DNA of 58,811 nt from a bacterium (GTDB lineage: Bacteria > Electryoneota > JAOADG01). Below are positions 552-54,183 of the stretch, one piece after another. Where the stretch lies: NCBI GenBank assembly GCA_030247525.1, contig JAOTSC010000003.1, positions 1 through 58,811 on the forward strand. The letters are read 5' to 3'. The notes under the pieces are model-generated. The model saw nothing but the letters and a program-made list of their open reading frames with translations, was not told the DNA's origin and ran no database searches. The position numbers and the translations under genes are program-made. The stretch's first letter is position 1. Every line of letters starts with the position of its first letter.

Positions 552-586
552 GGGGTGGAGCTGTCAGCCGGCGGTTCCACCCTTAC
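552..586. repeat. REP-like hairpin ending in CCCTTAC
   Basis: ggggtggagctgtcagccggcggttccacccttac: GGGTGGA/TCCACCC stem with a CTTAC tail like other hairpin families in the window. Confidence 0.6.
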
Positions 587-608
587 TAACCGATGACAAG
601 GGACACTT

Positions 609-1655
609 ATGTCCAGTATGGTTCAGTATTTCATCCGACGCTTCTTGCTCATCATTCCAACTTTCCTCGGAATAACGATGATCAGCTTCGGGATTATGCA
701 AATTGTTCCCGGTGGACCGCTTGAGCAAGAGATAATGAAGCTCAAAATGGGATTGGCAGCTGCAGGCGAAGTCGGTGGCGGCTCCGGAAATGTCAGCGGA
801 GCAGTTGAAATCCCAGAAGAAGCTTTAGCGGAAATGAGGAAATTCTACGGATTCGATAAACCAATACCTGTTCGTTATGCAACTTGGTTGTGGAATATTC
901 TTCATTTCGATTTGGGACGAAGCTATAAATATGGTGAACCGGTGTGGGACGTAATCAAGTCACGTTTCCCGATTTCGATTTATTTTGGTTTGATTGGCTT
1001 CATCCTCTCTTATAGCATCTGTATTCCGTTGGGGATTATGAAAGCGGTCAAACATGGCAGCACATTTGACTTTGCCACCTCCTTCCTCGTGTTCTTAGGA
1101 TATTCGACTCCCGGTTGGGCATTGGGTGCGATTCTCCTCGTGTTGTTTGGCGGTGGTTCCTTCTGGGATGTCTTCCCGTTGGGAGGTTTCCGTAGTGAAG
1201 GATGGGAAATGTTTGGTATGTGGGACAAAATCACTGATCAGGTATACCACACCATTCTACCTGTTATTGCTTATACCATCGGCAGTTTTGCAACATTAAC
1301 CGTTCTAATGAAGAATAGCTTAATGGAGCAGTTGGGGCAAGATTATGTCCGAACCGCATTTGCCAAAGGTCTTTCCGAAAAGCGCGTCGTGTTTCTTCAC
1401 GCCCTTCGCAACAGCTTGATTCCGATAGCAACCGGTCTTGGTCACTTCCTTGGAATAGTACTCGCAGGTAGCTATTTGATCGAGTATACATTCAACATCA
1501 ACGGCTTCGGTTTGCTCGGATTCACGAGTGTGGTGAATCGCGATTACCCCATCGTTCTCGGTGTTATGGTGATTTCCAGTTTGATTGGCTTACTGGGAAA
1601 CATTATCTCCGACATTCTTTATGCAATCATCGATCCTCGCATCCGGTTCCGGTAA
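609..1655 (+). CDS. Peptide/opine-type ABC transporter permease (OppB/DppB/YejB-like)
   Basis: 348-aa multi-TM ORF. N-terminus FIRRFLLIIPTFLGITMISFGIMQIVPGGP and EAA-type loop DYVRTAFAKGLSEKRVVFLHALRNSLIP are typical of this permease family. Confidence 0.85.
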   Translation: MSSMVQYFIRRFLLIIPTFLGITMISFGIMQIVPGGPLEQEIMKLKMGLAAAGEVGGGSGNVSGAVEIPEEALAEMRKFYGFDKPIPVRYATWLWNILHFDLGRSYKYGEPVWDVIKSRFPISIYFGLIGFILSYSICIPLGIMKAVKHGSTFDFATSFLVFLGYSTPGWALGAILLVLFGGGSFWDVFPLGGFRSEGWEMFGMWDKITDQVYHTILPVIAYTIGSFATLTVLMKNSLMEQLGQDYVRTAFAKGLSEKRVVFLHALRNSLIPIATGLGHFLGIVLAGSYLIEYTFNINGFGLLGFTSVVNRDYPIVLGVMVISSLIGLLGNIISDILYAIIDPRIRFR

Positions 1656-1661
1656 TATCTC

Positions 1662-2774
1662 ATGAGTGAAAAAAATATAACGAGCGCGCTGAATACCAAC
1701 GCTCCCATCGAAGAAGAAATCGCGCAAGGCAAAGAAATAGCGTCGGTTTCCCTCTTTAAGAAACGATTAAAGAAGTTCCGTTCGCTCAAACGTGGTTACT
1801 ATAGTTTTCTCATTTTAACCACATTGTACCTATTGAGCTTCCTACTCATGTTTCTTGTCAACAACCGTGCATTGGTTGTGAAATACAATGGAAGTCTTTA
1901 TTTCCCAATTTTCACATACCATGCTGCCAGCGAGTTTGGTCAGGAAGGATTCGGTGAAGCGAAGTATCGCGCTTTAGATAGAAAATTCGAGAGCGACGGT
2001 TCGGGCAATTGGGTGATCATGCCAATTTATCCCTACGACGCTATCGAGAGTTTACTCGATGAATTCACCGATACTCCTCCCCATGCCCCGTCACGTGAGC
2101 ACTGGATGGGTACCGATGATCGCGGGCGCGACGTATTTGCAAGATTAGCCTACGGATTCCGAATATCGGTTTCGTTTGCTTTGTTGCTCATCTTCATTGA
2201 ATACATCATCGGAATTTCAATCGGTGCTTCACTTGGTTTCTACGGCGGAAAGCTTGACCTCTTCGGTCAGCGTTTGATCGAGTTATGGTCGGCAGTGCCC
2301 GGGTTGTACACACTGATTATTCTAACATCGATTTTCCGCCCCAACTTCGCGATGTTGGTTATTTTTCTTGCGATCTTCGCCTGGATGGGTATCACGTACT
2401 ACATCCGTGGTGAATTCTACCGGGAAAAAGCGAAAGATTATGTGTCGGCTGCATTGGCAATGGGCGCTACCGACAAACAGATAATATTCCGCCACATCTT
2501 ACCCAATGCATTGACACCGGTGATTTCGTTCGCGCCATTTGCCGTCGTAGGTGGTATCGGTTCGCTGGTCGCGTTGGATTACTTAGGATTCGGCTTGCCG
2601 CCACCGACACCGTCGTGGGGACAAATGGCGCAAGTCGGCTTGCAGAACATATCAAAATGGTGGCTGGTAATGTTCCCCTTAGGAGCATTATTTGTTACCC
2701 TTTTGTTGGTCGTTTTTATTGGCGAAGCAGTGCGTAATGCATTCGATCCACGTGAGTATTCGAGGTTGCGATGA
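1662..2774 (+). CDS. Peptide ABC transporter permease (OppC/DppC/YejE-like)
   Basis: 370 aa. The motif HWMGTDDRGRDVFARL and a BPD-transporter core (AALAMGATDKQIIFRHILPNALTPV) match this family. The stop overlaps the next start. Confidence 0.85.
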   Translation: MSEKNITSALNTNAPIEEEIAQGKEIASVSLFKKRLKKFRSLKRGYYSFLILTTLYLLSFLLMFLVNNRALVVKYNGSLYFPIFTYHAASEFGQEGFGEAKYRALDRKFESDGSGNWVIMPIYPYDAIESLLDEFTDTPPHAPSREHWMGTDDRGRDVFARLAYGFRISVSFALLLIFIEYIIGISIGASLGFYGGKLDLFGQRLIELWSAVPGLYTLIILTSIFRPNFAMLVIFLAIFAWMGITYYIRGEFYREKAKDYVSAALAMGATDKQIIFRHILPNALTPVISFAPFAVVGGIGSLVALDYLGFGLPPPTPSWGQMAQVGLQNISKWWLVMFPLGALFVTLLLVVFIGEAVRNAFDPREYSRLR

Positions 2775-4803: not shown

Positions 4804-4828
4804 GATTTCTGATGCATGATTATAAGAA

Positions 4829-4854
4829 GGGCGGTGTCGAACCGCCCTTTTTTT
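4829..4854 (+). terminator. Rho-independent terminator after the peptide ABC operon
   Basis: gggcggt-gtcga-accgccc stem-loop followed directly by a T7 run, 26 nt after the oppF-like stop. Confidence 0.8.
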
Positions 4855-5195
4855 ATAAACTCACTGCTCAGCGTTTGATTCTTAGGTTGCTATCACTATT
4901 ATTACTGTAGTGAAGCAACATCCCATTTTCCTTTACTTGCGCTGATTTCCTTGACCGGAAACGCTATGAAACTCGATCCTCGTAAGCTTGCTGTAACCTA
5001 CGTTGCTTTTCTTCTCCTAAGCATCGCGAACATCACATCTGCTATTTCGTCGACACCGAAAACCATCCCCTCCCCGTTCTTCTTTACCGAAAACAAAGGG
5101 CAATGGGACGCTCGCGTCCTCTACAAGTGTCAAGCGAAGAATGGGATGACATGGTTCCTCGAACGTGATGGAATTACTCTGTTGCTAACGCAACC

Positions 5196-5290
5196 GGGGG
5201 CTCGGGATTCGGATTTCGGGGCTCAGGGTAGGGACGGACCCCCACGCCCGCCAATCGATGACCCCGTACGTCGGACATTCTTGTCCGACG
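5196..5290. repeat. Intragenic block of G-tract heptads plus two REP-like hairpins
   Basis: gggggctcgggattcggatttcggggctcagg, gtagggacggacccccacgcccgcc and ccgtacgtcggacattcttgtccgacg. The last is the same family as the hairpins flanking the RAYT gene. Confidence 0.8.
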
Positions 5291-5382
5291 ACGTAATGGA
5301 AAACGACTTACCCGAAATGCTGCGTCGCCATCCCGCGCGTAAGAATGTTCCGATGAAGAGTCATGCGTTGAAATTTCACTTC

Positions 5383-5618
5383 GTGAAGGGTGAAGGGTTA
5401 AAGGTCAAGGGTGAAGGGTTAAAGGTCAAGGGTGAAGGGTCAAAGGTCAAGGGTGAAGGGTCAAAGGTGAATGGTGCAAGGGAAACTAAAGAAGTTTCTG
5501 AGAACCTTGACCAGTCTTTTTCTACTCAACACCCTTCACCTTACACCTTACACCAATCTTTTTCCACCCTACACCCTACTCCTTACACCTTACACCAATC
5601 TTTTTCCACCTTACACCG
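5383..5618. repeat. Intragenic inverted pair of GGTGAAGGG-type heptad arrays (G-arm 5383-5480, C-arm 5528-5618)
   Basis: A 21-nt unit aaggtcaagggtgaagggtta occurs about 4 times and is translated as KVKGEGL repeats. It is followed by the complementary caccttacaccttacacc arm, translated as PYTLHQSFSTLH repeats. Confidence 0.9.
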
Positions 5619-5858
5619 TGCTGAAACACGCAGTGTTGAAGCGCAGGGAGAGCTCCCCTGGAAGAATAATTATTTCTTAGGCAACGACTCTTCGCGGTGG
5701 GCACCGAATTGCCGGAACTTTTCTTCGGTCGTGTATCGGGAAGTGTGGGAAAGAATCGATGTTGAATGGTATGAAAACGATGGCAAATTGGAATTCGATT
5801 TCATCGTCCATCCCGGCTTCGATCCCAATCAGATTCGGATGTCGGTGGAAGGATTAGA

Positions 5859-6580
5859 GGGGGATCGGATTTCGGGGTTCGGGGCTCCGGAATCGTTACT
5901 GTCATTGCGAGGCAGCGCAGCGACGAAGCAATCCCATTTGGATAATGGGGAACGGGGGACAGGGGACAGTAGGGGCGGACGCCCCTGTCCGCCCGACAGT
6001 AGGGGCGTGCCGCGCACGCCCGCAGTTACAGGCGTAAGTCAGACAATCCTGTCTGACAAGTATTCCAGTAGGGGCAGACCCTCTGGGTCGCCCGCAGAGA
6101 ATGTTCGTGACCTGCTTCGCGATTCACGAACCACTGAAGGAACTGTACATCGGCAAAAAATGTCCGACGACAACACCAGTAGGGGCGGACGCCCCTGTCC
6201 GCCCGATGGAAAAGAAAATGTTCGTGACCTGCTGCGCGATTCACGAACCACTGGAGGTACTAGTCTGTCTTTGCGAGGAATGGAACGTAGGATCGTCAGC
6301 CGCGAGGCTGACAGCCGCAGTGAAATGACGAAGCAATCTCATTTGGAAATCGGGAACAGAGAACCGGAGACAGGGAGCAGTAGGGTCAGACCCCAGAATA
6401 GTCAGTCCGATGGAAAAGAAAATGTTCGCGACATGGTTCCCGAGTCGCGAACCACTGTAGGAATTTCTTCTCGAACCCCGAATACCGAATCCCGAACCCC
6501 TACGAATGGAACCCCGAATACCGAATTCCGAACCCCTACGAATGGAACCCCGATTGCCCAATCCCCATTGCCCATCACCG
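5859..6580. repeat. Intragenic pile-up of REP-like hairpins and heptad arrays (about 0.7 kb), all in frame
   Basis: Elements present: gtaggggcggacgcccctgtccgccc twice (5969, 6179); gtaggggcagaccctctgggtcgccc (6068); gtaggggcgtgccgcgcacgccc (5999). Also aatgttcgtgacctgc(t/g)tcgcgattcacgaaccac three times (6099, 6217, 6421) and ccgaataccgaatcccgaaccccta heptads (6478-6580). Confidence 0.85.
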
Positions 6581-8405
6581 AGCTTCTCCTACCAACATCC
6601 TTGGGGGAATTGCGAACGGCACTGCCAAGTGTGTATCAAATCTCGGCAAATGGTACTCGCAATGAAATCGATGCGACGTTCCAATTAACCGACCAAAACA
6701 CGTTCGGAATCACGCTCCCGAACGGCTACAATCCCGACCATTCTTTGCGCATCGATCCCCTCATTTACAGTACCTATTTAGGGGGGAGTGGTGCTGATTA
6801 TGGATCTGACCTGTGTGAGGTTGGGAATGGAAATGTTGTTGTTTTGGGATCAACACAAAGCTTTGAGTTTCCAATCACAATAGGTAGCTATCAATCGTGG
6901 TTAAACGGAAGTACAGATTGGTTTGTTACAGAACTCAATAGTAGTGGTTCACAACTGGTTTTTAGTACTTATATCGGAGGAACCTTAAGTGATTACAATA
7001 ATCGAATTCTCAGAGCAGGCGATAACTCGTTGATCATTACCGGTTATACTCGTAGCACTGACTTTCCAGAATATAATCGATTGGGTGTATGCGGTAGCAT
7101 TGACGGGTTAATAGTTACTCTTAGTAGTAACGGATCACAACTACTTACTAGTACTAGAATCGGTGGGTCGAGTGATGATGATATTCGACCAATTATACCT
7201 GATGAAACAGGTGGATATTATGTTGGTTGCGGTACTTTGAGTGTTGATTACCCAATAACTGCCAACGCGTTTGATACCTCCGCAAACGGACAGAGTGACG
7301 GTTGCATTATGCGGTTTAACAACAACTTCACACAGATACTTTACAGCTCTTACTTTGGTGGCTCGATGAATGAGAACATTACCGATGTTTGTCTGTCGCC
7401 AGCTGGTGGAATTGTAGTAACTGGGTTAACATTGAGTGCAAATTTGCCTGTTACATCTACTGCAATTGACTCAACCATTAGCGGAGATTATGATTGTTTT
7501 GTCGCAAAATTTGATGCCTCATTATCATCCCTTTTATATAATACATTTCTCGGCGGCTTAGGCTATGATTCAGGATCAAACATCGTTTGCGATAGTAGCG
7601 GAATTGTTGTAACAGGTGCGGCGGGTGCAGGATTTCCAGTAACCAGTTGTGCTTTGGATACGACCTATCATGGAGGTATGGATTGCCATGTCACAAAACT
7701 GAGATTGGATGGGTTACAACTTGTTTTCTGTACCTACTTAGGTGGGATTGGAGATGATCATGGTTACTGTATCGATCTAGATGATCATTATAATTATATC
7801 GTTGCAGGAAGAACCCAAAGCGTAGATTTTCCAACGACCGCTATGTCTCTATTTCCAACAAATCAGGGGCAACAAGATGGTTTTGCATTGCTTCTCAATT
7901 CAGATGGTTCACAGTTATTGTATAGTACATTTTTGGGTGGGTTATCGGAGGATCGACTTAATTCACTCACTTTACTCAGAGATAGTGTTATTACAGTAGT
8001 TGGTTCTACAGCAAGTGTTAATTATCCAATTACCAACAATAGCTATGACACAACCTACAACGGTGGTTCAAGTGACTGTATTGTTACAAGACTTTTTCTA
8101 AACATTGACACTAACGATGTCGCAAACGAACAATACAAACTACCCGAACTGTATTCATTATCCCAAAACTACCCCAACCCCTTCAACTCATCTACCACCA
8201 TTTCCTATTCACTGCCAAAACCGGGGAATGGTTGAACTGAGACTATTCGACATCACGGGGCGCGAAGTGACTACCCTCGTTAACCAGAAACAGCAAACCG
8301 GAAGCTATCGGGTGACGTTCGATGGAAAGAATCTTTCGTCGGGAACTTATTTTGTGCGGATGCAAGCGGGGGAATTTGTGAAGACGCAGAAGATGGTGCT
8401 CTTAA

Positions 8406-8660
8406 GGTGAAAGGTGTAAGGTGTAAGGTGAAGGGGATCGAAAAAAATGGTGAAAGGTGTAGGGTGTAAGGTGTAAGGTGTAGGTTGTAAGGGTAGAGAA
8501 AGGCGTCCCCGCCTGTATAGGGTAGCGACAGGTCTCCCGACCTGTTAAAAACGAAAGGGCGACCCAGAGGGTCTGCCCCTACTGAAACAAGGGCGGCTGC
8601 CAGCCGCCCCTACGATACAATAAGTTTACCTGCGGTGAGCCCTCCGGGGCTGCCACGTCG
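8406..8660. repeat. Intergenic repeat cluster: GGTG(T/A)A(A/G) heptad arrays plus at least 4 REP-like hairpins
   Basis: Heptad arrays at 8406-8435 and 8448-8493. Hairpins gtagcgacaggtctcccgacctgt (8522-8545), gggcgacccagagggtctgcccctac (8557-8582), gggcggctgccagccgcccctac (8591-8613) and tacctgcggtgagcc... (8626-). Confidence 0.9.
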
Positions 8661-9785: not shown

Positions 9786-9918
9786 GGTAGCCGCGGGCTT
9801 TAGCCCGCGTTCCTTCAATTTGTGTTACCTGTGCGCGGGCTAAAGCCCGCGGCTACCGACTTAAAGGACAAATAGTGCGCGGGCTAAAGCCCACGGCTAC
9901 CGACCTAAAGGACAAATA
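9786..9918. repeat. REP cluster of the GGTAGCCGCGGGC family, including a 44-nt tandem duplication
   Basis: ggtagccgcgggctttagcccgcg (9786-9809) lies in one orientation. It is followed by gtgcgcgggctaaagccc(g/a)cggctaccgac(t/c)taaaggacaaata twice (9831-9874, 9875-9918) in the other orientation. Confidence 0.9.
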
Positions 9919-43621: not shown

Positions 43622-43653
43622 ATTGAACTAAACAACCGAATGGAAATGTGCGA

Positions 43654-44877: not shown

Positions 44878-44902
44878 AGAATACAAATAAGGAAGCACTT
44901 TC

Positions 44903-45130
44903 ATGGGAAATGAAGCATACGCACTGTTGTCCGCCGGTATCGGCGCAGGTCTTGTGGTTATCGGCGCCGGACTCGGCATCGGCCGCCTCGCTGGCGAAGC
45001 GATGCAAGGAATCGCCCGGCAACCGGAAGCGACCGCGAAAATTCAAACGGCTATGATTATCGCCGCCGCCCTTATCGAAGGCGTCGCGTTGTTCTGCGCC
45101 GTTATTTGCTTACTGTTGTCGTTCAAATAA
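44903..45130 (+). CDS. atpE: F0 ATP synthase subunit c
   Basis: 75-aa hairpin protein with the GIARQPE loop and ion-binding Glu in ALIEGVALF. Confidence 0.95.
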   Translation: MGNEAYALLSAGIGAGLVVIGAGLGIGRLAGEAMQGIARQPEATAKIQTAMIIAAALIEGVALFCAVICLLLSFK

Positions 45131-45134
45131 AAAC

Positions 45135-45200
45135 GGGAACAGGGTACAGGGGTTAGGGAACAGGTAAAGCACTGTTCCCCGTTCCCCGTTCCCCATTCCC
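45135..45200. repeat. GGGAACA-type heptad inverted repeat (long hairpin, or G4-capable G-arm) between atpE and atpF
   Basis: gggaacagggtacaggggttagggaacag / ctgttccccgttccccgttccccattccc. The core stem gggaacag (45156-45163) pairs with ctgttccc (45172-45179). The G-arm fits G3N4G3N4G4N3G3. Confidence 0.9.
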
Positions 45201-45210
45201 TGAGGGAACC

Positions 45211-45705
45211 ATGAATCCAATTGAATTGGTAACGCCCAACGTCGGAATGTGGTTTTGGACGACGCTGCTATTCTTAGCGGTGCTCATCATCCTGCGGAAA
45301 ACCGCGTGGGGTCCGATTGTCAAGGCGCTCGAAGAACGCGAGAAGACGATTGCCGACGATTTGAAGCGCGCCGAATCTGCCCGTGTCGATGCCGAAGGGG
45401 CGCGGGAAAGTCTGCTCAAGGAACAGGCGAAAATGCTTGCCGAGCAGAATGACCGGGTCGCCCAGATGATGAAGAATGCGGAACATCGCGCCGCCGACAT
45501 CATCGAACAGGCAAAAGTCGAAGCGCAGAAGCAGCGGGAAACCGCTACCGCCGAAATCGAACGCGAGAAGCAAAAAGCCATCGCCTCGATTCGCAGCGAA
45601 GTCGTAACGGTAGCGCTCAATGCCGCGCAAGCGGTGATCGGCAGAGAGTTGAAGCCGGAAGACCATCAGCGCTTGATTGAACAATCGATCAATCATTTGA
45701 ACTAA
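45211..45705 (+). CDS. atpF: F0 ATP synthase subunit b
   Basis: N-terminal TM helix followed by a long charged coiled coil. Position between atpE and atpH. Confidence 0.85.
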   Translation: MNPIELVTPNVGMWFWTTLLFLAVLIILRKTAWGPIVKALEEREKTIADDLKRAESARVDAEGARESLLKEQAKMLAEQNDRVAQMMKNAEHRAADIIEQAKVEAQKQRETATAEIEREKQKAIASIRSEVVTVALNAAQAVIGRELKPEDHQRLIEQSINHLN

Positions 45706-45779
45706 GGGTGTATGGTGAAAGGTGAAGGGTGAAAGGGATCTTCATGCCACCTTACACCCTACACCTTATACCTTTCACC
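45706..45779. repeat. GGTGAAAGG heptad inverted repeat (imperfect long hairpin) between atpF and atpH
   Basis: The G-arm (45706-45737) and C-arm (45747-45779) are complementary; for example ggtgaaagg (45714-45722) pairs with cctttcacc (45771-45779). Confidence 0.9.
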
Positions 45780-45790
45780 GCAAGGAAGAA

Positions 45791-46327
45791 ATGAGCTTAT
45801 TAGTATCACGCTACGCGGAGCCGTTGTACCTTGCCGCGAAAGAGACCGGCGAATTGGAAACGGTGACTGCCGACATGGCGGCGCTGGGTATGCTGTTGGT
45901 TTCCGGCGAATCGGGAAAAGTATTCGCGGAATACTTGTTATCGCCCCAAGTGTCGCGCAAGGAAAAGCTCGATACGTTGCTTGCGGTATTCGCCAGCGGC
46001 AGTAAAATCACTCGGAACTTTTTTCAGGTGGTAATTGAACGCGGGCGCGAAGAACTCCTGCTCGAATTGCCGGATGAGTTTCTTAAGCGAATGAAAAAAG
46101 AAGCGGGGATCGTCTCGGCAAACTTGATTAGTTCGATTGCACTCACCGAAAAACAAGTAAAGGCGATGGCGGAGAAAATCGGGAAATCGATTCACAAACA
46201 AGTCGAATTGACGTCGGAGACCGATGCTTCGTTGTTGGGCGGTTCGATTCTGGAACTGGAAGGGAAACGGTACGACGCCTCGCTCAAACGTCAATTAGAC
46301 GACCTGAAACAGGCGTTGTTGGCGTAG
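45791..46327 (+). CDS. atpH: F1 ATP synthase subunit delta (OSCP)
   Basis: MSLLVSRYAEPLYLAA... is an OSCP-type N-terminus, with AGGAAG upstream of ATG 45791. The longer tracked ORF (from 45722) merely reads through the repeat. Confidence 0.8.
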   Translation: MSLLVSRYAEPLYLAAKETGELETVTADMAALGMLLVSGESGKVFAEYLLSPQVSRKEKLDTLLAVFASGSKITRNFFQVVIERGREELLLELPDEFLKRMKKEAGIVSANLISSIALTEKQVKAMAEKIGKSIHKQVELTSETDASLLGGSILELEGKRYDASLKRQLDDLKQALLA

Positions 46328-46340
46328 GGGCGGGTGTAAA

Positions 46341-46405
46341 CCGTAGGACAGACACTCCTGTCTGTCCACAATGATTCCGATGGACAAGAATGTCCATCGT
46401 ACGGG
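46341..46405. repeat. REP doublet (GACAGACA family plus GGACAAGAATG family)
   Basis: ccgtaggacagacactcctgtctgtccac (46341-46369) and ccgatggacaagaatgtccatcgtacggg (46377-46405). Confidence 0.9.
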
Positions 46406-46420
46406 ACATCGAAGAGAAAA

Positions 46421-46741
46421 ATGAATCCACGGATTTTGCAAATCGCTGGGGAATTGAAGAGGCGGCTGGAACCGCTGTACGGCGAGCGGTTGCAAAAGGT
46501 CGTGGTCTTCGGTTCCTATGTGCGTGGCGAAGAGACTGACGAGTCGGATTTAGACGTCGCGATTGTGTTGGATCCAAAATATGACGATTTAACTGAGTGG
46601 AATTTAGCGGGATCGCTCTTTGTCGAAATCGATTTAGCGTTTGATGTGGTCGTCGATACGCATATAATTTCGCTCGAAGAATACAATGACCGGGATTATG
46701 CGATACTTCGCGCTATCCATAGCGAAGGGGTGACGGTGTGA
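46421..46741 (+). CDS. Minimal nucleotidyltransferase (MNT) antitoxin of a HEPN-MNT toxin-antitoxin pair
   Basis: GSYVRGEETDESDLDVAIV is the GSxxRGx(n)DxD NTase motif. Overlaps the downstream HEPN gene by 4 nt. Confidence 0.85.
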   Translation: MNPRILQIAGELKRRLEPLYGERLQKVVVFGSYVRGEETDESDLDVAIVLDPKYDDLTEWNLAGSLFVEIDLAFDVVVDTHIISLEEYNDRDYAILRAIHSEGVTV

Positions 46742-47118
46742 ACGAACTTGTAGCGTTGCACTTGAAGCGTGCCGAGCGATTTCTGGTCGAAGCGAATTTT
46801 ACTCTGACGAACGAGTTCTTCGATGCGGCGATCAACCGTTCCTACTATGCGATGTTTCATGCGGTAACCGCAGTACTGAAAACGGAAGATGTGGCGCGCA
46901 GTTCTCATGCCGGTGTGATTGCCGCATTTAATCAGTTCTTTGTCAAACCGGGTAAATTCACCGAGGTAGAAGGGCGTTGGCTCAAACACGGCTTTGAAAC
47001 GCGCAATAAGAACGATTATTGGCCGGCGCCGGAGAACAGTGAAGCGGAAGCGCTGCAATTATTTGAAGAAGCGAAGGCGTTTGTAGCGAAGTGTCGGGAG
47101 TATTGCGAAGGAGCGTAG
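46738..47118 (+). CDS. HEPN-domain toxin of the HEPN-MNT pair
   Basis: Helical protein with AINRSYYAMFHAVTAVL and ETRNKNDY motifs typical of PF05168-type HEPN domains. Confidence 0.85.
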   Translation: MNELVALHLKRAERFLVEANFTLTNEFFDAAINRSYYAMFHAVTAVLKTEDVARSSHAGVIAAFNQFFVKPGKFTEVEGRWLKHGFETRNKNDYWPAPENSEAEALQLFEEAKAFVAKCREYCEGA

Positions 47119-47244
47119 GGACGCAAATTATCGCATCCGAGACAATATCCGGGTTCGATGAACCCAACGCATTTCTAGCGTTGGTTCACAAACACCGATG
47201 ATTTTTCAATTCGTGTTTGTAATTGAACCCCTACAACGTTGCCC

Positions 47245-47324
47245 CGACATTCTTGTCGCGGAGTTGGAGGTTAGGCAATCTTGCCTGACTGAGGAAGAGC
47301 GACGGACAAGAATGCCCATCGTAC
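47245..47324. repeat. REP cluster; includes the left copy of the 26-nt direct repeat bracketing the TM-protein gene
   Basis: cgacattcttgtcg (47245-47258), ttggaggttaggcaatcttgcctgac (47264-47289) and cgacggacaagaatgcccatcgtac (47300-47324). Confidence 0.9.
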
Positions 47325-47424
47325 AGTAGTGGGACAGAAGGAAGCGGGAAAGTGGGAACGTAGCGACAAAGCTCCTGCTTTGTCATCGTCTTTGGAATTG
47401 TATTAACAACTGGAGGTGATACCA

Positions 47425-47820
47425 ATGTATTCTTCAGAACCAGATGACTGTTCTAAAGATGATCAACATCAGGATTTGATCGAGATAACTCCAGAACTAG
47501 TTAGGAAGGTGAGGATATTCAAATATTCTTTTTGGACTCTTAGAACGATTTTTCTATCATTTGCTATACTAATCATGTATTCGGGGTTTATCTTTGCGGG
47601 TTTTGTTTTTAAAATACCATTTATAGATAAAATCAAGGATGATACTTTGTTTATGTTTTTTTATTTTATTGCATCGGTAGTATTTGGTTTTGTCATGTTG
47701 AATCTTGTTTGTAAGGTTGGTGTTGTTGATAGATTATTTAATAAGATCGACAATAAATATGAATACTATAAAGAGCTGTTGTGCGTTTATAATTATGATA
47801 GAAAATCTCATAAGTGTTAG
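47425..47820 (+). CDS. Small AT-rich membrane protein, unknown function (two predicted TM helices)
   Basis: GGAGG lies 8 nt upstream of ATG 47425. Hydrophobic segments TIFLSFAILIMYSGFIFAGFVF and LFMFFYFIASVVFGFVMLNLV. No family recognised. Confidence 0.5.
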   Translation: MYSSEPDDCSKDDQHQDLIEITPELVRKVRIFKYSFWTLRTIFLSFAILIMYSGFIFAGFVFKIPFIDKIKDDTLFMFFYFIASVVFGFVMLNLVCKVGVVDRLFNKIDNKYEYYKELLCVYNYDRKSHKC

Positions 47821-47896
47821 TAAAAATCTAATTGTTTGATTTTGTGTCATTGTCCTTGAAATCATACATCGTGCAAACGAGGGTGTTTGTACTTAC

Positions 47897-47950
47897 GGGC
47901 GACCCCGAGGGTCTGCCCCTACAATTGGAGGTTAGGCAATCTTGCCTGAC
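47897..47950. repeat. REP doublet; includes the right copy of the 26-nt direct repeat
   Basis: gggcgaccccgagggtctgcccctac (47897-47922). ttggaggttaggcaatcttgcctgac (47925-47950) is identical to 47264-47289. Confidence 0.9.
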
Positions 47951-48037
47951 CAAATCAAATTTCACATCTCTCCTCACAGTGTGTGAAGTTTGAGTTTAGT
48001 CTCTGAAACAGGTTCAATCAACTTTGATGGTGGAGAG

Positions 48038-48757
48038 ATGTTAAGCGAAGAAGCAATAAAAAATGAAATAGATTCTTTGCTAAAAATGGGCGACGAACTA
48101 TTTTTAAATTTGGAAGGAGTAATGTTTCGTAGACATTATCCCCTATGGTATGGAAAATCATTGCCCTACATACATGAGTATAATAGTCTCTGCTATAATG
48201 ATTTTATAATGTGCTTTAAAAACGAAACAAGAAAAGAAATTACAGCTAGTACTTATACATTGTCGGATTATATTATCGGTGTATACCAAGTCAGCTCTGG
48301 ATATCAAATAAATGTACAATATGCTGTGCGTGGTCTCCTAGATATTCAAATTGGACTATTAAATGCGTGTATTAGTACGATTGATGGGTCATTAAACAAA
48401 CTAAAAAACTTTGTTCGAGCTGATTTGTTTTACAGTGAATTAGAATCGGCAGAATATTTGTGTCAAAATAAATTCTATCGAGCAGCAGGAAACATAGCTG
48501 GTATTGTAATTGAGAGGCACTTAATTCACATATGTAATGATTTAGAGATCGTGTTACCTAATAAACCAACGTTAGGTGTTGTAATTGATCGTTTATATGA
48601 TGCCGACCGAATAGATGATGTTGAAAAGTTGAGATTGAAGCACCTTAATGAAATCAGAGTAAAATGTGATCACGTAAAAGAGACCGAACCAAATGAAGCT
48701 GAAGCAAAGAATATTTTATTCGGTGCACGAGAAACTCTTAGTAAAAACTATGTATAG
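48038..48757 (+). CDS. AT-rich hypothetical protein with a C-terminal HEPN-like (DUF4145-like) Rx4H motif
   Basis: The C-terminal pattern TLGVVIDRLYDADRIDDVEKLRLKHLNEIRVKCDH resembles DUF4145/HEPN (L..I..L....i......L..iR....H). R is at 48656-48658 and H at 48671-48673. The start is uncertain (TTG 47990 or ATG 48038). Confidence 0.5.
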   Translation: MLSEEAIKNEIDSLLKMGDELFLNLEGVMFRRHYPLWYGKSLPYIHEYNSLCYNDFIMCFKNETRKEITASTYTLSDYIIGVYQVSSGYQINVQYAVRGLLDIQIGLLNACISTIDGSLNKLKNFVRADLFYSELESAEYLCQNKFYRAAGNIAGIVIERHLIHICNDLEIVLPNKPTLGVVIDRLYDADRIDDVEKLRLKHLNEIRVKCDHVKETEPNEAEAKNILFGARETLSKNYV

Positions 48758-48810
48758 TGATTTATCAAATTGTGTAAAGTTGAAAACGCAACCAATCAGG
48801 AACCAACTGC

Positions 48811-50319
<1,509 letters not shown>

Positions 50320-50322
50320 ATA

Positions 50323-50387
50323 GGGGGCAGGGAACAGGGGACAGTAAACAGTTTTGCACCGTTCCCTGTTCCCCGTATCCCGTTCCC
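50323..50387. repeat. GGGAACAGGGG heptad inverted repeat after atpA (hairpin plus T-run; attenuator/terminator-like)
   Basis: gggaacaggg (50330-50339) pairs with ccctgttccc (50364-50373). The C-arm is followed by tttt (50388-50391). Confidence 0.85.
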
Positions 50388-50405
50388 TTTTCTGATTGGT
50401 AAAAT

Positions 50406-51269
50406 ATGCCATCTCTCAAACAGACGAAACAGCGCATCGTCAGCGTGAAGTCGACGCAACAGATCACCAAAGCGATGAAGATGGTGGCGGCGGCGAAATT
50501 ACGGCGGGCGCAAAATAATATGCTGGCGGCGCGTCCGTACTCGCACCGGTTGCGCAACGTCATCGCCGAAATGGCGGGACGCACCGACTATAGCCACCCG
50601 TTGTTGGTGGAACGAGCGCCGGAGCAAGTCGGGTTTGTCGTCGTTGCCTCCGACCGCGGGCTCGCCGGCAGTTTCAATACGAATGTGATGAAACGCGCCG
50701 TTGCCGCGTACAACGAACATGAAGGGGCTGACCGCTTCCTGATTACCGTAGGCAGGAAAGCGACCGACTTCTTTACGAAACGCGGCTACAACGTCATTTC
50801 CAAGCATCTCGACATTTTTCCCGACCCGACGCTGGAAAAGTCGCGCCGTATCAGCGATAACATCATCGCGAAATATTACAATGAGATGATTGGACTTGAC
50901 CGCGTCTACTTGGTTTACAACGAATTCAAAAATGTCGTCCAACAACAAATCATTGTCGAACAGCTCCTCCCGATTATTCCGGCGGAAGAGGAGAAGGGCG
51001 GATTTCATCAGGATTTCCAATTTGAACCGTCCCCGGAAGCGATTCTCGATGTAGTGTTGCCGCAGTACATCAATGTCGCTATCTGGCACGTGCTGCTCGA
51101 ATCGTTTGCTGCGGAAATGGCAGCGCGTATGACGGCGATGGAGAATGCGACAAAGGCGGCGTCCGATATGATTTCCGCATTAACGTTGCAATACAACAAA
51201 GCGCGGCAGAGTGCGATTACGAAAGAACTACTCGAAATTGTCGCCGGCGCGGAAGCGCTGAAAGGGTAG
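50406..51269 (+). CDS. atpG: F1 ATP synthase subunit gamma
   Basis: N-terminus MPSLKQTKQRIVSVKSTQQITKAMKMVAAAKLRRAQ and C-terminus ITKELLEIVAGAEAL are canonical AtpG termini. Confidence 0.95.
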   Translation: MPSLKQTKQRIVSVKSTQQITKAMKMVAAAKLRRAQNNMLAARPYSHRLRNVIAEMAGRTDYSHPLLVERAPEQVGFVVVASDRGLAGSFNTNVMKRAVAAYNEHEGADRFLITVGRKATDFFTKRGYNVISKHLDIFPDPTLEKSRRISDNIIAKYYNEMIGLDRVYLVYNEFKNVVQQQIIVEQLLPIIPAEEEKGGFHQDFQFEPSPEAILDVVLPQYINVAIWHVLLESFAAEMAARMTAMENATKAASDMISALTLQYNKARQSAITKELLEIVAGAEALKG

Positions 51270-51370
51270 GGACTCGGGGTTCGGAATTCGGGAATCGGTG
51301 TTGGGTGTTGGGGAAAGATGGTGAAGGGTGTAAGGTGAAAGGTGTAGGGGAAGACAATGTGGGTCGCCCG
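51269..51370. repeat. Heptad arrays plus a truncated REP; left bracket of the HicAB-DinB module
   Basis: gggactcggggttcggaattcgggaatcgg (51269-51298). ggtgaaaggtgtagggg-N9-tgggtcgcccg (51334-51370) matches 52412-52448 in the same orientation. Confidence 0.85.
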
Positions 51371-51428
51371 AAGTAGGGTGAAAGTATTGGGAAAGCTCGC
51401 AAAGATATTTCAGCAAATACTTTCATGA

Positions 51429-51653
51429 CGTTCGGATACGAACATCCGTTTCGACGATCTTCGTGCCGTTCTTTTACAATTAGAATTTTCGGAACGGATT
51501 CGCGGAAGTCATCATATTTTCGTTCGTGACGACTTCGAAGAGATAATAAATATTCAACCGACGGAAAACGGAAAAGCAAAACCGTATCAAGTGAAACAGA
51601 CGAGAAATCTGATTGTAAAATACCGGTTGAAAGGATTTGACGATGAAGTATGA
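51429..51653 (+). pseudogene. HicA-like toxin gene lacking a canonical in-frame start codon
   Basis: The open frame reads ...NIRFDDLRAVLLQLEFSERIRGSHHIFVRDD...GKAKPYQVKQTRNLIVKYRL, with a GSHH core. A TGA lies at 51426-51428 just upstream, and there is no ATG/GTG/TTG before the conserved core. ATG 51425 lies in another frame. Confidence 0.5.
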
Positions 51654-51849
51654 AGTGATTTTGTACTGGAGCGAAGACGATCAGGCATTTGTAGCCGAAG
51701 TGCCAGAATTACCGGGCTGTGCCGCCGATGGGAGAACCTATCGGGAAGCGTTTGAGAATATCGAAATCGTCGCGCAGGAATGGATGGAAACCGCTCGCGA
51801 ATTGGGTAGAAATGTTCCGGAACCGAAAGGTCGTTTGATTTTTGCATAG
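51643..51849 (+). CDS. HicB-like antitoxin (UPF0150 fold)
   Basis: The MKYEVILYWSEDDQAFVAEVPELPGCAADGRTYREA pattern is typical of the HicB N-terminal domain. Overlaps the hicA-like stop. Confidence 0.7.
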   Translation: MKYEVILYWSEDDQAFVAEVPELPGCAADGRTYREAFENIEIVAQEWMETARELGRNVPEPKGRLIFA

Positions 51850-51855
51850 GATTGG

Positions 51856-52356
51856 ATGGTATCGATGAGTGTTAGTGAGAATATGAAGTGGGTGTATGGC
51901 GTTCACGATTATGCGGTGAATGTCAACCTCGCCGGTATTTCCGATGCGGAGTCGCGAAGGCGGATGGAGCCGGGCGGAAATTGCGTAAATTGGATTATGG
52001 GACACATGCTCTGTTCCCGCGTCCATATTCTCGGTTTTCTCGGTTGCGACTGGACAAAGACGAATGCCGTACTCGAGCCGTATCAGCGGGGAACCAGCGG
52101 CGCTGATTTCGATTCTTTTCTTACTCTGGATGAATTGACAAAACTGTGGCAGGAGTCGTCGGAGCTTTTGAAAACGAACATCGATGCGACGACCGATGAA
52201 CAGTGGTTGGAACCGGCTTCGCTGCCCGGTACGGGATTCGATAAACCGGATACGCGGGAGCGCCGGGTATTCTTTCTATCGTTCCATGAAGGATACCATT
52301 TAGGACAAATCGGATTATTACGTCGGTTACTTGGTAAAGAAGGCGCGATAAAATAG
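51856..52356 (+). CDS. DinB-family (DinB_2) metal-dependent four-helix-bundle protein
   Basis: His triad context (WIMGHMLCSRVH ... FHEGYHLGQIGLL), and a length of about 165 aa. Confidence 0.75.
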   Translation: MVSMSVSENMKWVYGVHDYAVNVNLAGISDAESRRRMEPGGNCVNWIMGHMLCSRVHILGFLGCDWTKTNAVLEPYQRGTSGADFDSFLTLDELTKLWQESSELLKTNIDATTDEQWLEPASLPGTGFDKPDTRERRVFFLSFHEGYHLGQIGLLRRLLGKEGAIK

Positions 52357-52539
52357 GTGAAAGGTGTAGGGTGAAAGGTGTAGGGTGAAAGGTGTAGGGT
52401 GAAAGGTGTAGGGTGAAAGGTGTAGGGGCTGACCCTCTGGGTCGCCCGGTGATGGGTGATAGGTTTTGGGGATTGGATAGCGACAGGTCTTCAGACCTGT
52501 AAAAAAGAAAATAGCAATTCTGGAGAATTGCCAGTACCC
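52356..52539. repeat. 14-nt tandem array (ggtgaaaggtgtag x5) plus three REP hairpins. Contains the right bracket of the HicAB-DinB module and the left bracket of the nuclease-HicAB module
   Basis: Tandem array 52356-52425. gtaggggctgaccctctgggtcgccc (52422-52447), tagcgacaggtcttcagacctgt (52478-52500) and gcaattctggagaattgccagtaccc (52514-52539). Confidence 0.9.
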
Positions 52540-52708
52540 AATCCGAACAATGGCGCTATTGCGGGAAGCTTTTGTCGATAGCGATCTGCCGTTTCGGGTC
52601 GATGAGGTGGAAAAGAGAGAGTTGAACGCAAGTGAACAAACTCTGATAACCTTGTAGTAGTCGAGATAGGCTCGACAATCTAATTAATTAAAAACAAGGA
52701 GTAAAATC

Positions 52709-53549
52709 ATGATTATCGAACAAGCGTTTTTTGGATTACCGGAATTGTGTGCAAATAAGAGTAGTTTGAGCGAAGCATTTATCAGATCGTGTTTCAGTCA
52801 TAGTATTTTACAAGAATTAATTGCACGTGGAGTTCCTTATCCAATAACAAAAATTCAACACGAATATGTTTACGAAGAATTACAAAAAGGAAATAAATTC
52901 CATGCAGATTTGTGTTTGACGTTGAATGATGAGAAGTATGTAAATAGGATGTCTATATGGGGACAAAAAAAACAACAACATAATTGAAATGAAGCTTATT
53001 AGAAATTATGACAAAAAAGATGGTTCAGAAAACAAGCAAGGCGTAATAAACAATGGGTACTTGCTCGATTCATTATTGCGTCTATCTATCTTACCGAAAA
53101 TTGAAATTGCACAAAAAAACAGCGGTGAGTTGAAAAATAATTCAGTTGGAAGATATTTACTACATGTGTATTTAGGAGAACCTGATCAATTCTTAGCCTA
53201 TAAGGATCAAAAAGGTGATGAAAGATTATGGGTGAAGAATCTTATCGAAGGTGAACAGAACGTAGAACTAGAACCTGCACGTGAAAAGTCCGGACATCTT
53301 CTGGCGATATATTCTAAGTACGGAAATGTTGTTCTGTTGAAAATGTCGATTAGAAGTATCAAAATTAAATCATTTATGAAGAAAGGTATAACTTTTGTCT
53401 TAAGTAAGATAAATTCTTTTCAGCTGAAAACAAATGAAGGAATGTATAATGAAAATGAGTTTGGTTCTTTCGATCAATCGCAATACAGTGTTTTGAAAAA
53501 CGCAAGAAACCAGAGCTTGTTTAATGTTAAAAGTAATCAAAACACATGA
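52709..53549 (+). pseudogene. AT-rich PD-(D/E)xK-like putative nuclease split into two ORFs at an A8 homopolymer
   Basis: AAGGAG RBS before ATG 52709. ORF1 carries FHADLCLTL (candidate catalytic D). The ORF2 frame is open upstream of its ATG and reads IIEMKLI (candidate ExK). The frames differ by +1, and removing one A from the A8 run (52965-52972) fuses them into a protein of about 279 aa. Confidence 0.45.
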
Positions 53550-53743
53550 AAGTCCGTGAGATAATAAAACTAATAGAAAAAGACGGTTGGTACTTGGTGA
53601 CGACCAAAGGAAGTCATCGGCAATTCAAGCACCCTGAAAAACCGGGACGTGTGACAGTTCCGGGACACGTTGGAGAGGATATGCCGGAAGGCATTCGGAT
53701 TTCTATCTTGAATCAAGCCGGATTGCGGAAGAGAGGAAAGTAA
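53546..53743 (+). CDS. hicA: HicA toxin (YcfA-type mRNA interferase)
   Basis: MKVREIIKLIEKDGWYLVTTKGSHRQFKHPEKPGRVTVPGH is canonical HicA. ATGA overlap with the upstream ORF. Confidence 0.9.
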   Translation: MKVREIIKLIEKDGWYLVTTKGSHRQFKHPEKPGRVTVPGHVGEDMPEGIRISILNQAGLRKRGK

Positions 53744-53744
53744 T

Positions 53745-54020
53745 ATGCGGTACGAGTATGCTATCTTCATCGAACGGTCGAAAAGCCGGTATTGGGCTTC
53801 CGTACCCGATCTTCCGGGTTGTGTTTCCTGTGGAAAATCGTTAGAAGAATTGCAAAAAAATATCCAAGAAGCCATCGAATTTCATTTGGAAGGGATGGTC
53901 GAAGATGGATTACCAATCCCGAAACCGGTGACAAAAGCAAGTATGGTGGAAGTGGAGCGTCCGACCCGGCGAAAAGCAATACGTCGGATTACCAGGACGA
54001 CGGTACGCGGTCATGAGTAG
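53745..54020 (+). CDS. hicB: HicB antitoxin
   Basis: YAIFIERSKSRYWASVPDLPGCVSCGKSLEELQKNIQEAIEFHLEG is the HicB/UPF0150 domain. Starts 2 nt after the hicA stop. Confidence 0.85.
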   Translation: MRYEYAIFIERSKSRYWASVPDLPGCVSCGKSLEELQKNIQEAIEFHLEGMVEDGLPIPKPVTKASMVEVERPTRRKAIRRITRTTVRGHE

Positions 54021-54183
54021 AGGCGTATTGCAATACGCCCATCGTGTGACGGGCTTGGAAGCCCGTAACCACCCAAACGGGACGGGTAGCGACAGGTCTC
54101 CAGACCTGTAAAAAGAAAATGTGCAATTCGGGAGAATTGCCGGTACCCAAGTGAATTTGAGGGCGTATGCCATACGCCCCTAC
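54017..54183. repeat. REP cluster of five hairpins; contains the right bracket of the nuclease-HicAB module
   Basis: Hairpins at 54017-54040, 54051-54074, 54086-54109 (gtagcgacaggtctccagacctgt), 54123-54148 (gcaattcgggagaattgccggtaccc) and 54161-54183. Confidence 0.9.

Follow-up and report, generated by a model that had tools for sequence, protein, structure and literature searches.

Short tagged hairpins, very probably RAYT-linked REP elements, occur densely and in many families on a contig of an uncultured wastewater bacterium

The window, which is the entire 58.8-kb contig of an uncultured wastewater bacterium, carries short hairpins that are very probably REP elements linked to RAYTs (REP-associated tyrosine transposases), many of them arranged as inverted doublets. 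The elements combine the characters that define REPs, namely a short palindromic stem-loop, a 5′ GTAG-type tag and frequent inverted pairing (REPIN/BIME organisation), and the window offers a dense and varied instance of a REP/RAYT system of known kind. RAYT, or TnpA(REP), enzymes are HUH-Y1 nucleases related to the IS200/IS605 transposases and represent a domesticated transposase.

Perfect hairpins (stem of at least 7 bp, loop of 3–6 nt) number 48 in the window, against 15.4 ± 4.0 (maximum 23) in 30 dinucleotide-preserving shuffles. In 29 of the 48, one strand has a GTA[GC] head no more than 7 nt from the 5′ side of the stem (mean of 0.67 in the shuffles, maximum 4); together with a cognate RAYT in the window, this bears out an earlier note, which took the hairpins for REP-type elements bearing a head of the RAYT type. 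When all 4-mers adjoining the hairpins were tallied without bias, GTAG showed the highest enrichment (14-fold, 18/48) and GTAC was also elevated (7-fold, 11/48). A census by seed similarity (no more than 4 mismatches per 22 nt) found 51 elements, headed by GTAG in 30 cases, by GTAC in 12 (a quarter) and by other or degenerate sequences in nine. About seven further degenerate copies recognised by eye bring the total to ∼58, close to the ‘about 60’ counted earlier, and all eleven head-plus-stem motifs listed then are present at the kind of place given for them. The local density, ∼0.9–1 per kb, agrees with the earlier estimate of about one copy per kb and is roughly five times as high as in a relative's syntenic region. 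Other RAYT-bearing loci equal or exceed it, with 1.38 headed hairpins per kb at one of them (L005).

Each unit consists of a 5′ tetranucleotide tag (GTAG, often GTAC here), 0–2 spacer bases, a stem of 7–9 bp and a loop of 3–6 nt, usually a pyrimidine-rich tetraloop. As single-stranded DNA the hairpins have predicted minimum free energies of −5.9 to −10.7 kcal/mol, with z from −2.6 to −7. The 59-kb contig contains at least nine families (counted by distinct stem type, more than 20): four main families (A, B/B2, C and D) and five minor ones, among which F, H and I have just 1–3 copies each in the window and membership by resemblance. In the alignment of family-A stems, 94% of cells are paired and both sides have changed at four of the nine pairs, a compensatory score reached by 0 of 500 shuffles. 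The outer stem varies freely with compensation and the loop-proximal GACA/TGTC is fixed; the fourth base of the tag covaries and pairs with the base at the 3′ end of the stem, a departure from the criterion of an ‘unpaired’ tag.

Neighbours no more than 70 nt apart form 10 heads-outward, three heads-inward and 15 tandem pairs, and some doublets mix families (D with E, D with B2). A family-C doublet folds into one 25-bp hairpin; the pair at 9787/9835, with identical arms and heads outward, reaches −34 kcal/mol as a single long hairpin. Besides those at the RAYT gene and inside one coding gene (below), the loci are:

8522–8613: D at 8522–8545 (plus), B2 at 8557–8582 (minus) and B at 8591–8613 (minus), 3′ of two convergent genes
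9787–9900: REPIN-like family-C doublet, 9787 (plus) and 9835 (minus), with a third copy at 9879 (minus)
14486–14510, minus strand: family-A REP, GTAGGACAGACA, one stem mismatch
18076–18203, minus strand: family-B REP with GTGG head at 18181–18203 and degenerate B-like copy at 18076–18097
22966–23105: cluster of B at 22966 (plus) and C at 23001 (plus), 23038 (plus) and 23083 (minus)
26443–26464, minus strand: degenerate family-C copy
27066–27156: degenerate B2-like copy at 27066–27093 (plus) and family-A REP at 27132–27156 (minus)
31118–31186: family-A doublet, heads outward, GTAG-GTCAGACA (plus) and GTAC-GACAGACA (minus)
41128–41295: mosaic of B at 41128 (minus), I at 41168 (minus), D with GTAC head at 41205 (plus), B2-like at ∼41236 (minus) and F at 41269 (minus)
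40965–41033 and 41291–41363: G-rich and C-rich heptad arrays, respectively, around this mosaic
43522–43592: family-C doublet, heads outward, upstream of atpB
44789–44877: family-A REP GTAC-GTCGGACA (plus) and its partner with degenerate GCAC head at 44853–44877 (minus), between atpB and atpE
46343–46402: family-A doublet, heads outward, GTAG-GACAGACA (plus) and GTAC-GATGGACA (minus), between atpH and the MNT gene
47269–47384: H at 47269 (minus), degenerate A at 47303 (minus) and G at 47360 (plus)
47901–47953, minus strand: B2 at 47901 and H at 47930
51344–51369, plus strand: degenerate B2 copy, 3′ of a heptad array
52422–52538: B2 at 52422 (plus), then a heterologous doublet of D (plus) and E (minus) at 52475–52538
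54017–54183: B at 54017 (plus), F at 54049 (minus), D at 54085 (plus), E at 54123 (minus) and B at 54161 (minus), upstream of atpD

Within the contig, 43 of the 51 census copies lie in spacers, mostly 3′ of genes in tandem or convergent spacers. An element is contained in 19 of the 35 spacers of at least 30 nt, and seven or eight elements stand in a coding frame instead, so the earlier statement that nearly every spacer is occupied was too strong. The preference for gene 3′ ends would suit palindromes without a link to a transposase, whether arisen by chance or serving as ordinary terminators or regulatory hairpins, and a few hairpins, such as those at 4827–4849 and 41097–41121, are indeed terminator-like; these are headless and fall outside the REP families, the one at 4827–4849 being followed by a T-run. 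Such an origin is nevertheless extremely improbable for the set and is already contradicted by the evidence. Identity as intrinsic (Rho-independent) terminators was rejected, TTTT occurring within 16 nt of only 6 of the 51 elements; the tag is conserved and strongly enriched, inverted doublets are formed, copies occur within a coding frame, and the association with RAYTs is direct, both here and at most related loci described below. Rfam 15, at the gathering score, gave no matches in the whole window.

The association with RAYT genes that the earlier note proposed to look for was found within the window, where a RAYT gene lies between znuA and znuC and between inverted REPs of one family:

32055–32561, minus strand: RAYT of family A, with an HVH motif and the YIWWNPIRAGLV Tyr motif in its translation
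32598–32732, minus strand: three family-A REPs, GTAC-GTTGGACA-ttct-TGTCCAAC-G, in a 55-nt tandem array upstream of the RAYT in the same orientation
32062–32086, plus strand: family-A REP, inverted relative to the upstream REPs and overlapping the last RAYT codons, giving a REPtron layout with heads outward

The translation matches NCBIfam NF047646 (REP_Tyr_transpos) with 80.3 bits (cutoff 80, X at the stop) and Pfam PF01797 (Y1_Tnp) with 25.5 (cutoff 23, E=1.6e-5), and both catalytic motifs, HUH NHVHLVL and Tyr EYIWWNPIRAGLV, are present. The orthologous contig L001 has the same inverted-REP layout around its RAYT. The frame is not intact, containing a single in-frame TAA at 32331–32333; an intact orthologue (P0002), 81% identical and with the same znuA neighbour, has Gln at this position. 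No alternative letter was seen at the TAA site in contigs of a source-like metagenome (run X1). Because of this nonsense codon, the family-A RAYT copy in the window is probably inactive.

The lesion, confirmed in independent contigs, could indicate that the elements are fossils, their RAYTs dead or lost and the REPs immobile, persisting by drift or in co-opted roles as RNA 3′-end hairpins or protein-binding sites. Degenerate copies are many (odd heads in 9/51, imperfect stems in about 13), and the syntenic place of a second RAYT known from a relative is occupied here by REPs only. We regard this explanation as unlikely. Apart from its single lesion the RAYT shows 81% identity to the intact orthologue, and its loss would therefore be recent; many copies at distant sites are perfect and identical (for example 5967–5996 and 6177–6206, or 9787 and 9835), elements are some fivefold more numerous than in the relative's syntenic region, and further RAYTs may exist elsewhere in the genome.

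In the contigs of run X1 the depth over REPs is 7–20 times the unique baseline, with many different flanks (the summed contig depth for the 8522–8613 cluster is likewise 7–20 times), which points indirectly to near-identical REP copies outside the window.

The preferred reading, that the hairpins are REPs linked to RAYTs, is extended to family B by the relative L083, in which a second RAYT-like gene (RAYT_B; NF047646, E=1e-18) lies between inverted family-B REPs. The outer B pair of the 54017–54183 cluster (GCGTAT stems) matches these flanking REPs at a similar place. RAYT_B is distant from the family-A RAYT (about 30% identity over the C-terminal half). A RAYT between inverted REPs of its own family is thus seen for family A in the window and in the L001 orthologue, and for family B only in L083. 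The search covered the window, which itself holds one RAYT; it turned up none for families C to I, nor did a RAYT_B orthologue come to light for the source genome.

RAYTs of the same clade occur mainly in Planctomycetota, Acidobacteriota, Ignavibacteriota/Kapabacteria and Desulfobacterota, and AtpD of the host is 74% identical to that of Calditrichota, KSB1 and ‘Hatepunaea’ MAGs. GT[AG][GC]-headed hairpins flank the gene at 73 of 80 same-clade RAYT loci from many phyla, with heads outward in 43; among their stems, GGACAGACA, GCAGGC and ACAGGTC recall those of families A, C and D, respectively. The diversity of families, considered unusual in the earlier note, consists of variations on one architecture that recurs beside same-clade RAYTs in many phyla. 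Nor is there support for regarding the coexistence of many families with a shared head as unusual per se, multiple REP classes and RAYTs per strain, pseudogenised RAYTs and class switching being documented (PMC3686654, PMC3733652).

These similarities raise the question of whether a single RAYT lineage serves all or most families, which would then be a swarm drifting through stem and tag changes (orthoswitch, Nunvar et al.) rather than separate REP/RAYT systems. The common architecture, the freely compensating outer stem of family A around a fixed GACA/TGTC, the A-, C- and D-like stems in relatives of the same RAYT clade and the mixed-family doublets are consistent with this. Surveyed fluorescent pseudomonads and stenotrophomonads also average 2–3 RAYTs per strain, with at most four, yet several REP classes coexist (PMC3686654). 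We consider a single lineage possible but doubtful, since family B has its own, distinct RAYT in a relative, and in E. coli and S. maltophilia the enzymes discriminate by tag, stem or loop (PMC8266576).

For REPs spread by RAYTs, the published mechanism of TnpA(REP) (PMC8266576, PMC3479197) suggests that the enzymes would recognise, cut and spread the elements as single-stranded DNA. Further RAYT paralogues at other places in the genome might serve families C to I, or these families might descend from A/B-type progenitors through drift of stem and tag (‘orthoswitch’). The tag would act as a guide selecting the cleavage dinucleotide, for which Marinomonas TnpA(REP) is the in vitro precedent, and secondary roles such as protection of mRNA 3′ ends are conceivable.

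The elements in a coding frame are concentrated in the gene for a secreted DUF7948/T9SS protein, in which ∼1.4 kb of REPs and heptad repeats (about 350–470 codons) run in frame. The DUF7948 domain is split at three points by a mosaic of at least eight REPs and heptad arrays:

5190–5620, plus strand: inserts 1 and 2, with a degenerate B-like copy at 5228, a family-A REP at 5266–5290, then G-rich and C-rich heptad arrays
5885–6600, plus strand: insert 3, with B at 5969 and 5999, A-like (GTAA head) at 6034, B2 at 6068, degenerate A at 6145, B at 6179 and an element at 6287

The REP at 5266–5290 translates as VRRTFLSDD. In insert 3 every head is on the sense strand, G-rich and C-rich heptad arrays bracket the REPs, and stops are absent from the gene frame, whereas the two other forward frames contain 3 and 15. 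Three orthologues, P0211, P0245 and P0271, lack the insert; in P0208 and P0242 it is shorter and has a different content.

These blocks suggest a broader reading, in which REPs and the bracketing G/C-rich arrays of 7-nt period form modular mosaic units that are more than spacer filler. The blocks may insert in frame in the T9SS gene, building a REP-encoded linker of about 350–470 residues; as this linker differs between related species, the repeats would generate variation in protein length and sequence. They may also mark joints at which accessory cassettes (MNT-HEPN, DinB, second RAYT) enter the ATP synthase operon, and a naturally occurring change of guide tag, GTAG becoming GTAC, may have made new target sites accessible and driven the REP burst. 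Taken jointly, we think these three proposals rather improbable.

Among the closest known systems is the GTAG-tagged REP super-family with its REPtrons, including SMAG of S. maltophilia (Di Nocera, De Gregorio & Rocco 2013, PMC3733652), which shares the 5′ GTAG tag and short loops, with stems of 6–13 bp. There too, singletons, dimers and clusters occur, several families inhabit one genome, RAYT genes are flanked by their own REPs and some REPs lie inside ORFs. In contrast, the present host is of an uncultured FCB-type lineage, and no Bacteroidetes or Chlorobi with GTAG repeats turned up in that survey. Nor does it list GTAC, the head of a quarter of our elements, and the intragenic cluster here, at about 350–470 codons, is far larger than the 43–82 residues it describes. 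Inverted REP doublets, and a vertically inherited RAYT locus at one conserved chromosomal place, are shared with the REPIN/RAYT systems of Pseudomonas and Enterobacteria (Bertels & Rainey 2011, PMC3116915; Bertels et al. 2017, PMC5581495), the window having a single such locus with znuA–RAYT synteny kept in the orthologue at 81% identity. Unlike those REPINs, many doublets here pair different families, and the RAYT clade is not that of gammaproteobacterial Groups 2 and 3. Pseudomonads and stenotrophomonads likewise have several REP classes per strain, pseudogenised RAYTs and classes differing by stem changes around one orthologous RAYT, the orthoswitch (Nunvar et al. 2013, PMC3686654), whereas in our case the whole variety of families and stem types is found in a single contig. 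In-frame palindromic repeats that keep the frame open are known from Rickettsia palindromic elements (RPE) and intragenic REPs of Opitutus terrae (summarised in PMC3733652), but the mosaic here splits one domain at three points and differs in content between related species. Finally, the tetranucleotide 5′ of the hairpin occupies the position of the IS608 guide sequence, as in the TnpA(REP) guide-tag studies (Corneloup et al. 2021, PMC8266576; Messing et al. 2012, PMC3479197). In that work GTAC was an engineered mutant that redirected Marinomonas TnpA cleavage to GA or GT, whereas here it is the natural tag of RAYT-flanking REPs, with its fourth base paired to the stem's 3′ end.

The findings add an uncultured wastewater lineage of the FCB group to the known range of RAYT-linked REPs of GTAG type. 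For annotation, such repeats break short-read assemblies and risk being miscalled as coding sequence; the ∼1.4-kb in-frame block in the gene for a secreted protein ranks among the largest instances on record of an ORF carrying palindromic repeats. A natural GTAC tag beside a RAYT offers a ready test of the guide-tag model, hitherto based on engineered mutants, and a RAYT clade with recognisably similar REPs across many little-studied phyla provides a broad natural data set on the co-variation of REP stem, tag and enzyme.

Across the whole window (a complete contig of 58,811 bases, GC ~49%) we found 48 perfect hairpins, defined as a stem of at least 7 bp with a loop of 3-6 nt, compared with 15.4 ± 4.0 in 30 dinucleotide-preserving shuffles. 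In 29 of the 48, GTA[GC] lies no more than 7 nt 5' of the stem on one strand, against 0.67 in the shuffles, so the hairpins reported in the earlier note are real. The head was not presupposed: a tally of every 4-mer beside the hairpins places GTAG as the most enriched (18/48, 14-fold), with GTAC likewise high (11/48, 7-fold). Counted conservatively by similarity (no more than 4 mismatches in 22 nt to any clear element), the elements number 51, or ~58 with about seven extra degenerate copies recognised by eye, close to the "about 60" first counted, and all eleven motifs originally listed were located. The heads among the 51 elements are GTAG (30), GTAC (12) and other or degenerate forms (9). 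The claim that nearly every spacer is occupied was too strong, as elements occur in 19 of 35 spacers and 7 or 8 lie inside a coding frame. Relative to the flanking genes, the elements favour neither strand (18 versus 14).

Several other classes of element were considered. Terminators were ruled out since the hairpins mostly lack a T-run (6/51 are followed by one). A CRISPR array was rejected on the irregular spacing, and no cas genes were seen among the annotated ORFs. Integron attC sites are longer imperfect palindromes; the elements here are short tagged hairpins, and no integrase was present among the annotated ORFs. A single MITE family does not fit stems this diverse, and most units have no terminal inverted repeats around them. 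An Rfam search of the window at gathering scores returned no matches. No encoding contigs were on record for the window's TPR protein.

Hairpin families in the window (head and stem; copies)
Family A: GTA[C/G] followed by NNNN-GACA, YTCY loop, TGTC-NNNN; ~16 copies
Family B: GTAG followed by GGGCGNNN; ~10 copies
Family B2: GTAGGGGCAGACCC-tct-GGGTCGCCC; ~6 copies
Family C: GGTAGC followed by CGCRGRC; ~8 copies
Family D: GGTA[G/C][C/G]G followed by ACAGGTC; 4 copies
Family E: GGTACYG followed by GCAATTC; 2 copies
Family F: GGTTAC followed by GGGCTT; 2 copies
Family G: GTAGC followed by GACAAAGC; 1 copy
Family H: GGTYAGGCA / TGCCTRACC stem, atct loop on the GGAG-headed strand, degenerate head; 2 copies
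Family I: TTACCTGCGG...; 2-3 copies

All families share one plan: after the tag come 0-2 bases, then a stem of 7-9 bp with a short loop, mostly a pyrimidine-rich tetraloop. The four pairs nearest the loop hardly vary in family A, and changes in the outer pairs are compensated; pairing holds in 94% of cells, both sides have changed in 4 of the 9 pairs, and the score was reached by 0 of 500 shuffles. Furthermore, the fourth tag base (G or C) in this family covaries with the last stem base. Representative units are predicted to fold as single-stranded DNA at -5.9 to -10.7 kcal/mol. Neighbouring elements no more than 70 nt apart are arranged heads-outward in 10 pairs, heads-inward in 3 and in tandem in 15. 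Some doublets are homologous, for example the family-C pair 9787/9835, which folds as a single 25-bp hairpin. In others the two partners differ in family; for instance, 52475-52538 and 54085-54147 both combine D and E, and 8522-8582 combines D and B2.

Positions 32055-32561 (minus strand) contain a gene for a Y1 HUH protein that carries the motifs NHVHLVL and EYIWWNPIRAGLV, matches NCBIfam REP_Tyr_transpos at 80.3 (cutoff 80) and also reaches the Pfam Y1_Tnp cutoff. Its reading frame holds a single in-frame TAA at 32331-33. In gene orientation, three family-A REPs (GTAC-GTTGGACA; 55-nt tandem array) lie 5' of this RAYT, and one inverted family-A REP lies 3' and supplies its final codons. The arrangement is that of a classic REPtron, and the association with a RAYT gene that the earlier note had proposed to look for is present. 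An intact orthologue on an ENA metagenome contig (P0002, 81% identity) has Gln at the stop position, adjoins the same znuA gene and has the same REP flanks in the same layout. The TAA also occurs in contigs of a wastewater metagenome run with this sequence, a run that may be the assembly's own source and so is not independent. A tblastn search of the window with 31 RAYTs matched this one locus and no further RAYT. The RAYT and its REPs split znuA and znuC, of a zinc/manganese-type ABC importer (31205-33733); no permease gene was seen next to either, and the znuA-RAYT adjacency is kept in the orthologous contig L001.

For comparison, 80 loci were listed from species-representative genomes, with an alignment of RAYT relatives as query and the window's own genome not among them. 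They come from Planctomycetota, Acidobacteriota, Ignavibacteriota/Kapabacteria, Desulfobacterota, Verrucomicrobiota, Chloroflexota and a cyanobacterium. Hairpins headed by GT[AG][GC] lie no more than 350 nt from the RAYT at 73 of the 80 listed loci, on both sides in 53 and with heads outward in 43. Family-A-like stems (GGACAGACA-ttcc) stand beside clade RAYTs at L003, L005, L026, L077 and other loci, a family-C-like stem ([A/T]GCAGGC-ttt[t/c]a) at L047 and a family-D-like stem (GGACAGGTC-tcct) at L043. Because the listed loci show such heads and A-, C- and D-like stems, the window's many same-headed families are what this enzyme clade normally carries, brought together in one genome. The coexistence of many families with a shared head, first described as unusual, thus reduces to variants of one plan, with similar stems beside RAYTs of the clade.

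By locus, the tags among the 80 are GTAG in 43, GTGG in 41 and GTAC in 1, the last therefore being rare beside related RAYTs. GTAC is also absent from the text of the 2013 survey of GTAG repeats (PMC3733652). The exact family-A REP was not found in JGI metagenome contigs. GTAC heads are not unique to the window, however: in metagenomes, a degenerate GTAC family-A pattern matches at least 120 loci, where 80 hairpins are fully paired. No RAYT was found at these loci. In vitro, changing GTAG to GTAC shifted cleavage by the Marinomonas TnpA(REP) to GA or GT (PMC8266576).

The closest relatives by AtpD are MAGs at 82-87% identity, with Calditrichota, KSB1 and 'Hatepunaea' at ~74%. In the relative at 84% (locus L083, on the 4.34-Mb ENA contig ERZ21878129 contig_1), the atp region contains four headed hairpins, all of family B (GTAGGGGCGTAT). 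Two of them, inverted, frame a 184-residue gene for a second, distant RAYT (RAYT_B; NF047646, E=1e-18; motifs PNHLHMIL and YIDLNPSRW); in this relative, family B has a RAYT enzyme of its own. At a similar place in the window, upstream of atpD, two REPs of this B type lie inverted to each other (54017+, 54161-) with only F, D and E hairpins between. No close RAYT_B orthologue turned up, and none for the window's genome, the next best match showing 51% identity over 43% of the query. At L083 4952-5705, another inverted, heads-outward family-B pair brackets a 211-residue gene without family match (5031-5666), framed like the RAYT 4 kb downstream, hence a non-RAYT gene in a REPtron-like frame. The F1Fo ATP synthase operon of the window (43648-56229) is interrupted at atpH/atpA and atpG/atpD by MNT-HEPN, DinB and hypothetical genes. 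Relatives at 84-87% AtpD identity (L083 439-11913; L085) also have these two joints interrupted, but the cassettes differ: one relative has two MNT-HEPN pairs, an NTase pair and a RAYT there, and another has HicAB and a Schlafen-like gene.

Along ~12-13 kb of atp operon, 20 elements from seven or more families occur in the window, compared with four elements of one family in the relative. At 0.49 perfect headed hairpins per kb across its 59 kb, the window lies in the upper range of the fetched loci, not at the top; L005 reaches 1.38 per kb (13.8 kb covered) and L047 1.03 per kb, both loci being centred on RAYT genes. In stenotrophomonads a REP class is reported with tens to a few hundred copies, and in fluorescent pseudomonads with hundreds to more than 1000 (PMC3686654), and about one element per kb is therefore locally high, on this contig.

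Summed word depth over REP clusters was taken from the Logan contigs of the run holding the sequence (unique baseline ~9); it counts near-identical matches of ~25-30 nt only, may include other organisms of the sample and is not a copy number. Depth is 65 at the D copy 8521-8545 (~7x baseline), 123-194 at the D copy 54085-54109 (~13-20x), 81-84 for C, 90-107 for B2, 127-133 for F, and 170-194 for the GGGCGGCT type of B, with ~70-74 for its GCGTAT type. Family E and the one A copy tested are near single-copy depth. Moreover, dozens of short Logan contigs with divergent loose ends align on the REP clusters. This shows that the REPs are dispersed beyond the contig, although part of the signal may come from other members of the sampled community.

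The ORF at 4966-8235 specifies a protein with a signal peptide, a DUF7948 domain in three separate stretches, repeats and a T9SS tail. Segment 5190-6600 of the ORF contains heptad arrays and at least eight REPs, every head on the sense strand; predicted REP-encoded peptides of the gene include VRRTFLSDD and SRGGRPCPPD. These 470 codons contain no stops in the gene frame, versus 12 and 30 in the other forward frames and 11-17 in the reverse frames; spacer REP clusters have stops in every frame. The orthologues P0211, P0245 and P0271 are without inserts. The two closest homologues, P0208 and P0242, have shorter in-frame inserts of different composition, with the REP-encoded peptides SRGVPRTPA and VHRTFLSD. 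Intragenic REPs are known, the largest reported clusters encoding 43-82 residues (PMC3733652). A one-base frameshift near 8223-8232 (G-run 8223-8226), also in the run's Logan contigs, cuts off the T9SS C-terminal sorting domain, which runs on to 8410 in a different frame, so this copy may have become a pseudogene recently. Elsewhere in the window, the cbb3 oxidase subunits CcoN and CcoO are fused in a single 711-residue ORF (14516-16651), which, like the T9SS tails, we take to be typical of the FCB group.

The heptad arrays have a 7-nt period (GGTGAAG/GGTGTAA, GGGGTTC/GGAATTC and GGGAACA types), with a G-rich arm and a complementary C-rich arm that often bracket REP clusters, the in-frame DUF7948 block included.

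Heptad arrays in the window
5383-5494
5510-5614
8406-8500
40965-41033 / 41291-41363
42746-42822
45131-45200
50319-50390
51276-51355
52357-52440

Summed depth over the heptad stretch 8455-8476 is ~400 in the run's contigs versus the baseline of 9. In a metatranscriptome of the same study (X3), REP and heptad sequences reach depths of up to ~520 (window 5263-6553), with no RNA coverage of unique parts of the window in its contigs; therefore, either related repeats are transcribed somewhere in the community or DNA was carried over.

These hairpins belong to the RAYT-associated GTAG super-family of REPs, a known kind found here in a little-known lineage. They are locally dense and diverse, and the evidence does not support calling this diversity categorically unusual. 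Four points are worth following: the REP mosaic carried in frame, GTAC as a natural tag next to a RAYT, the doublets of mixed family and the difference from the relative.
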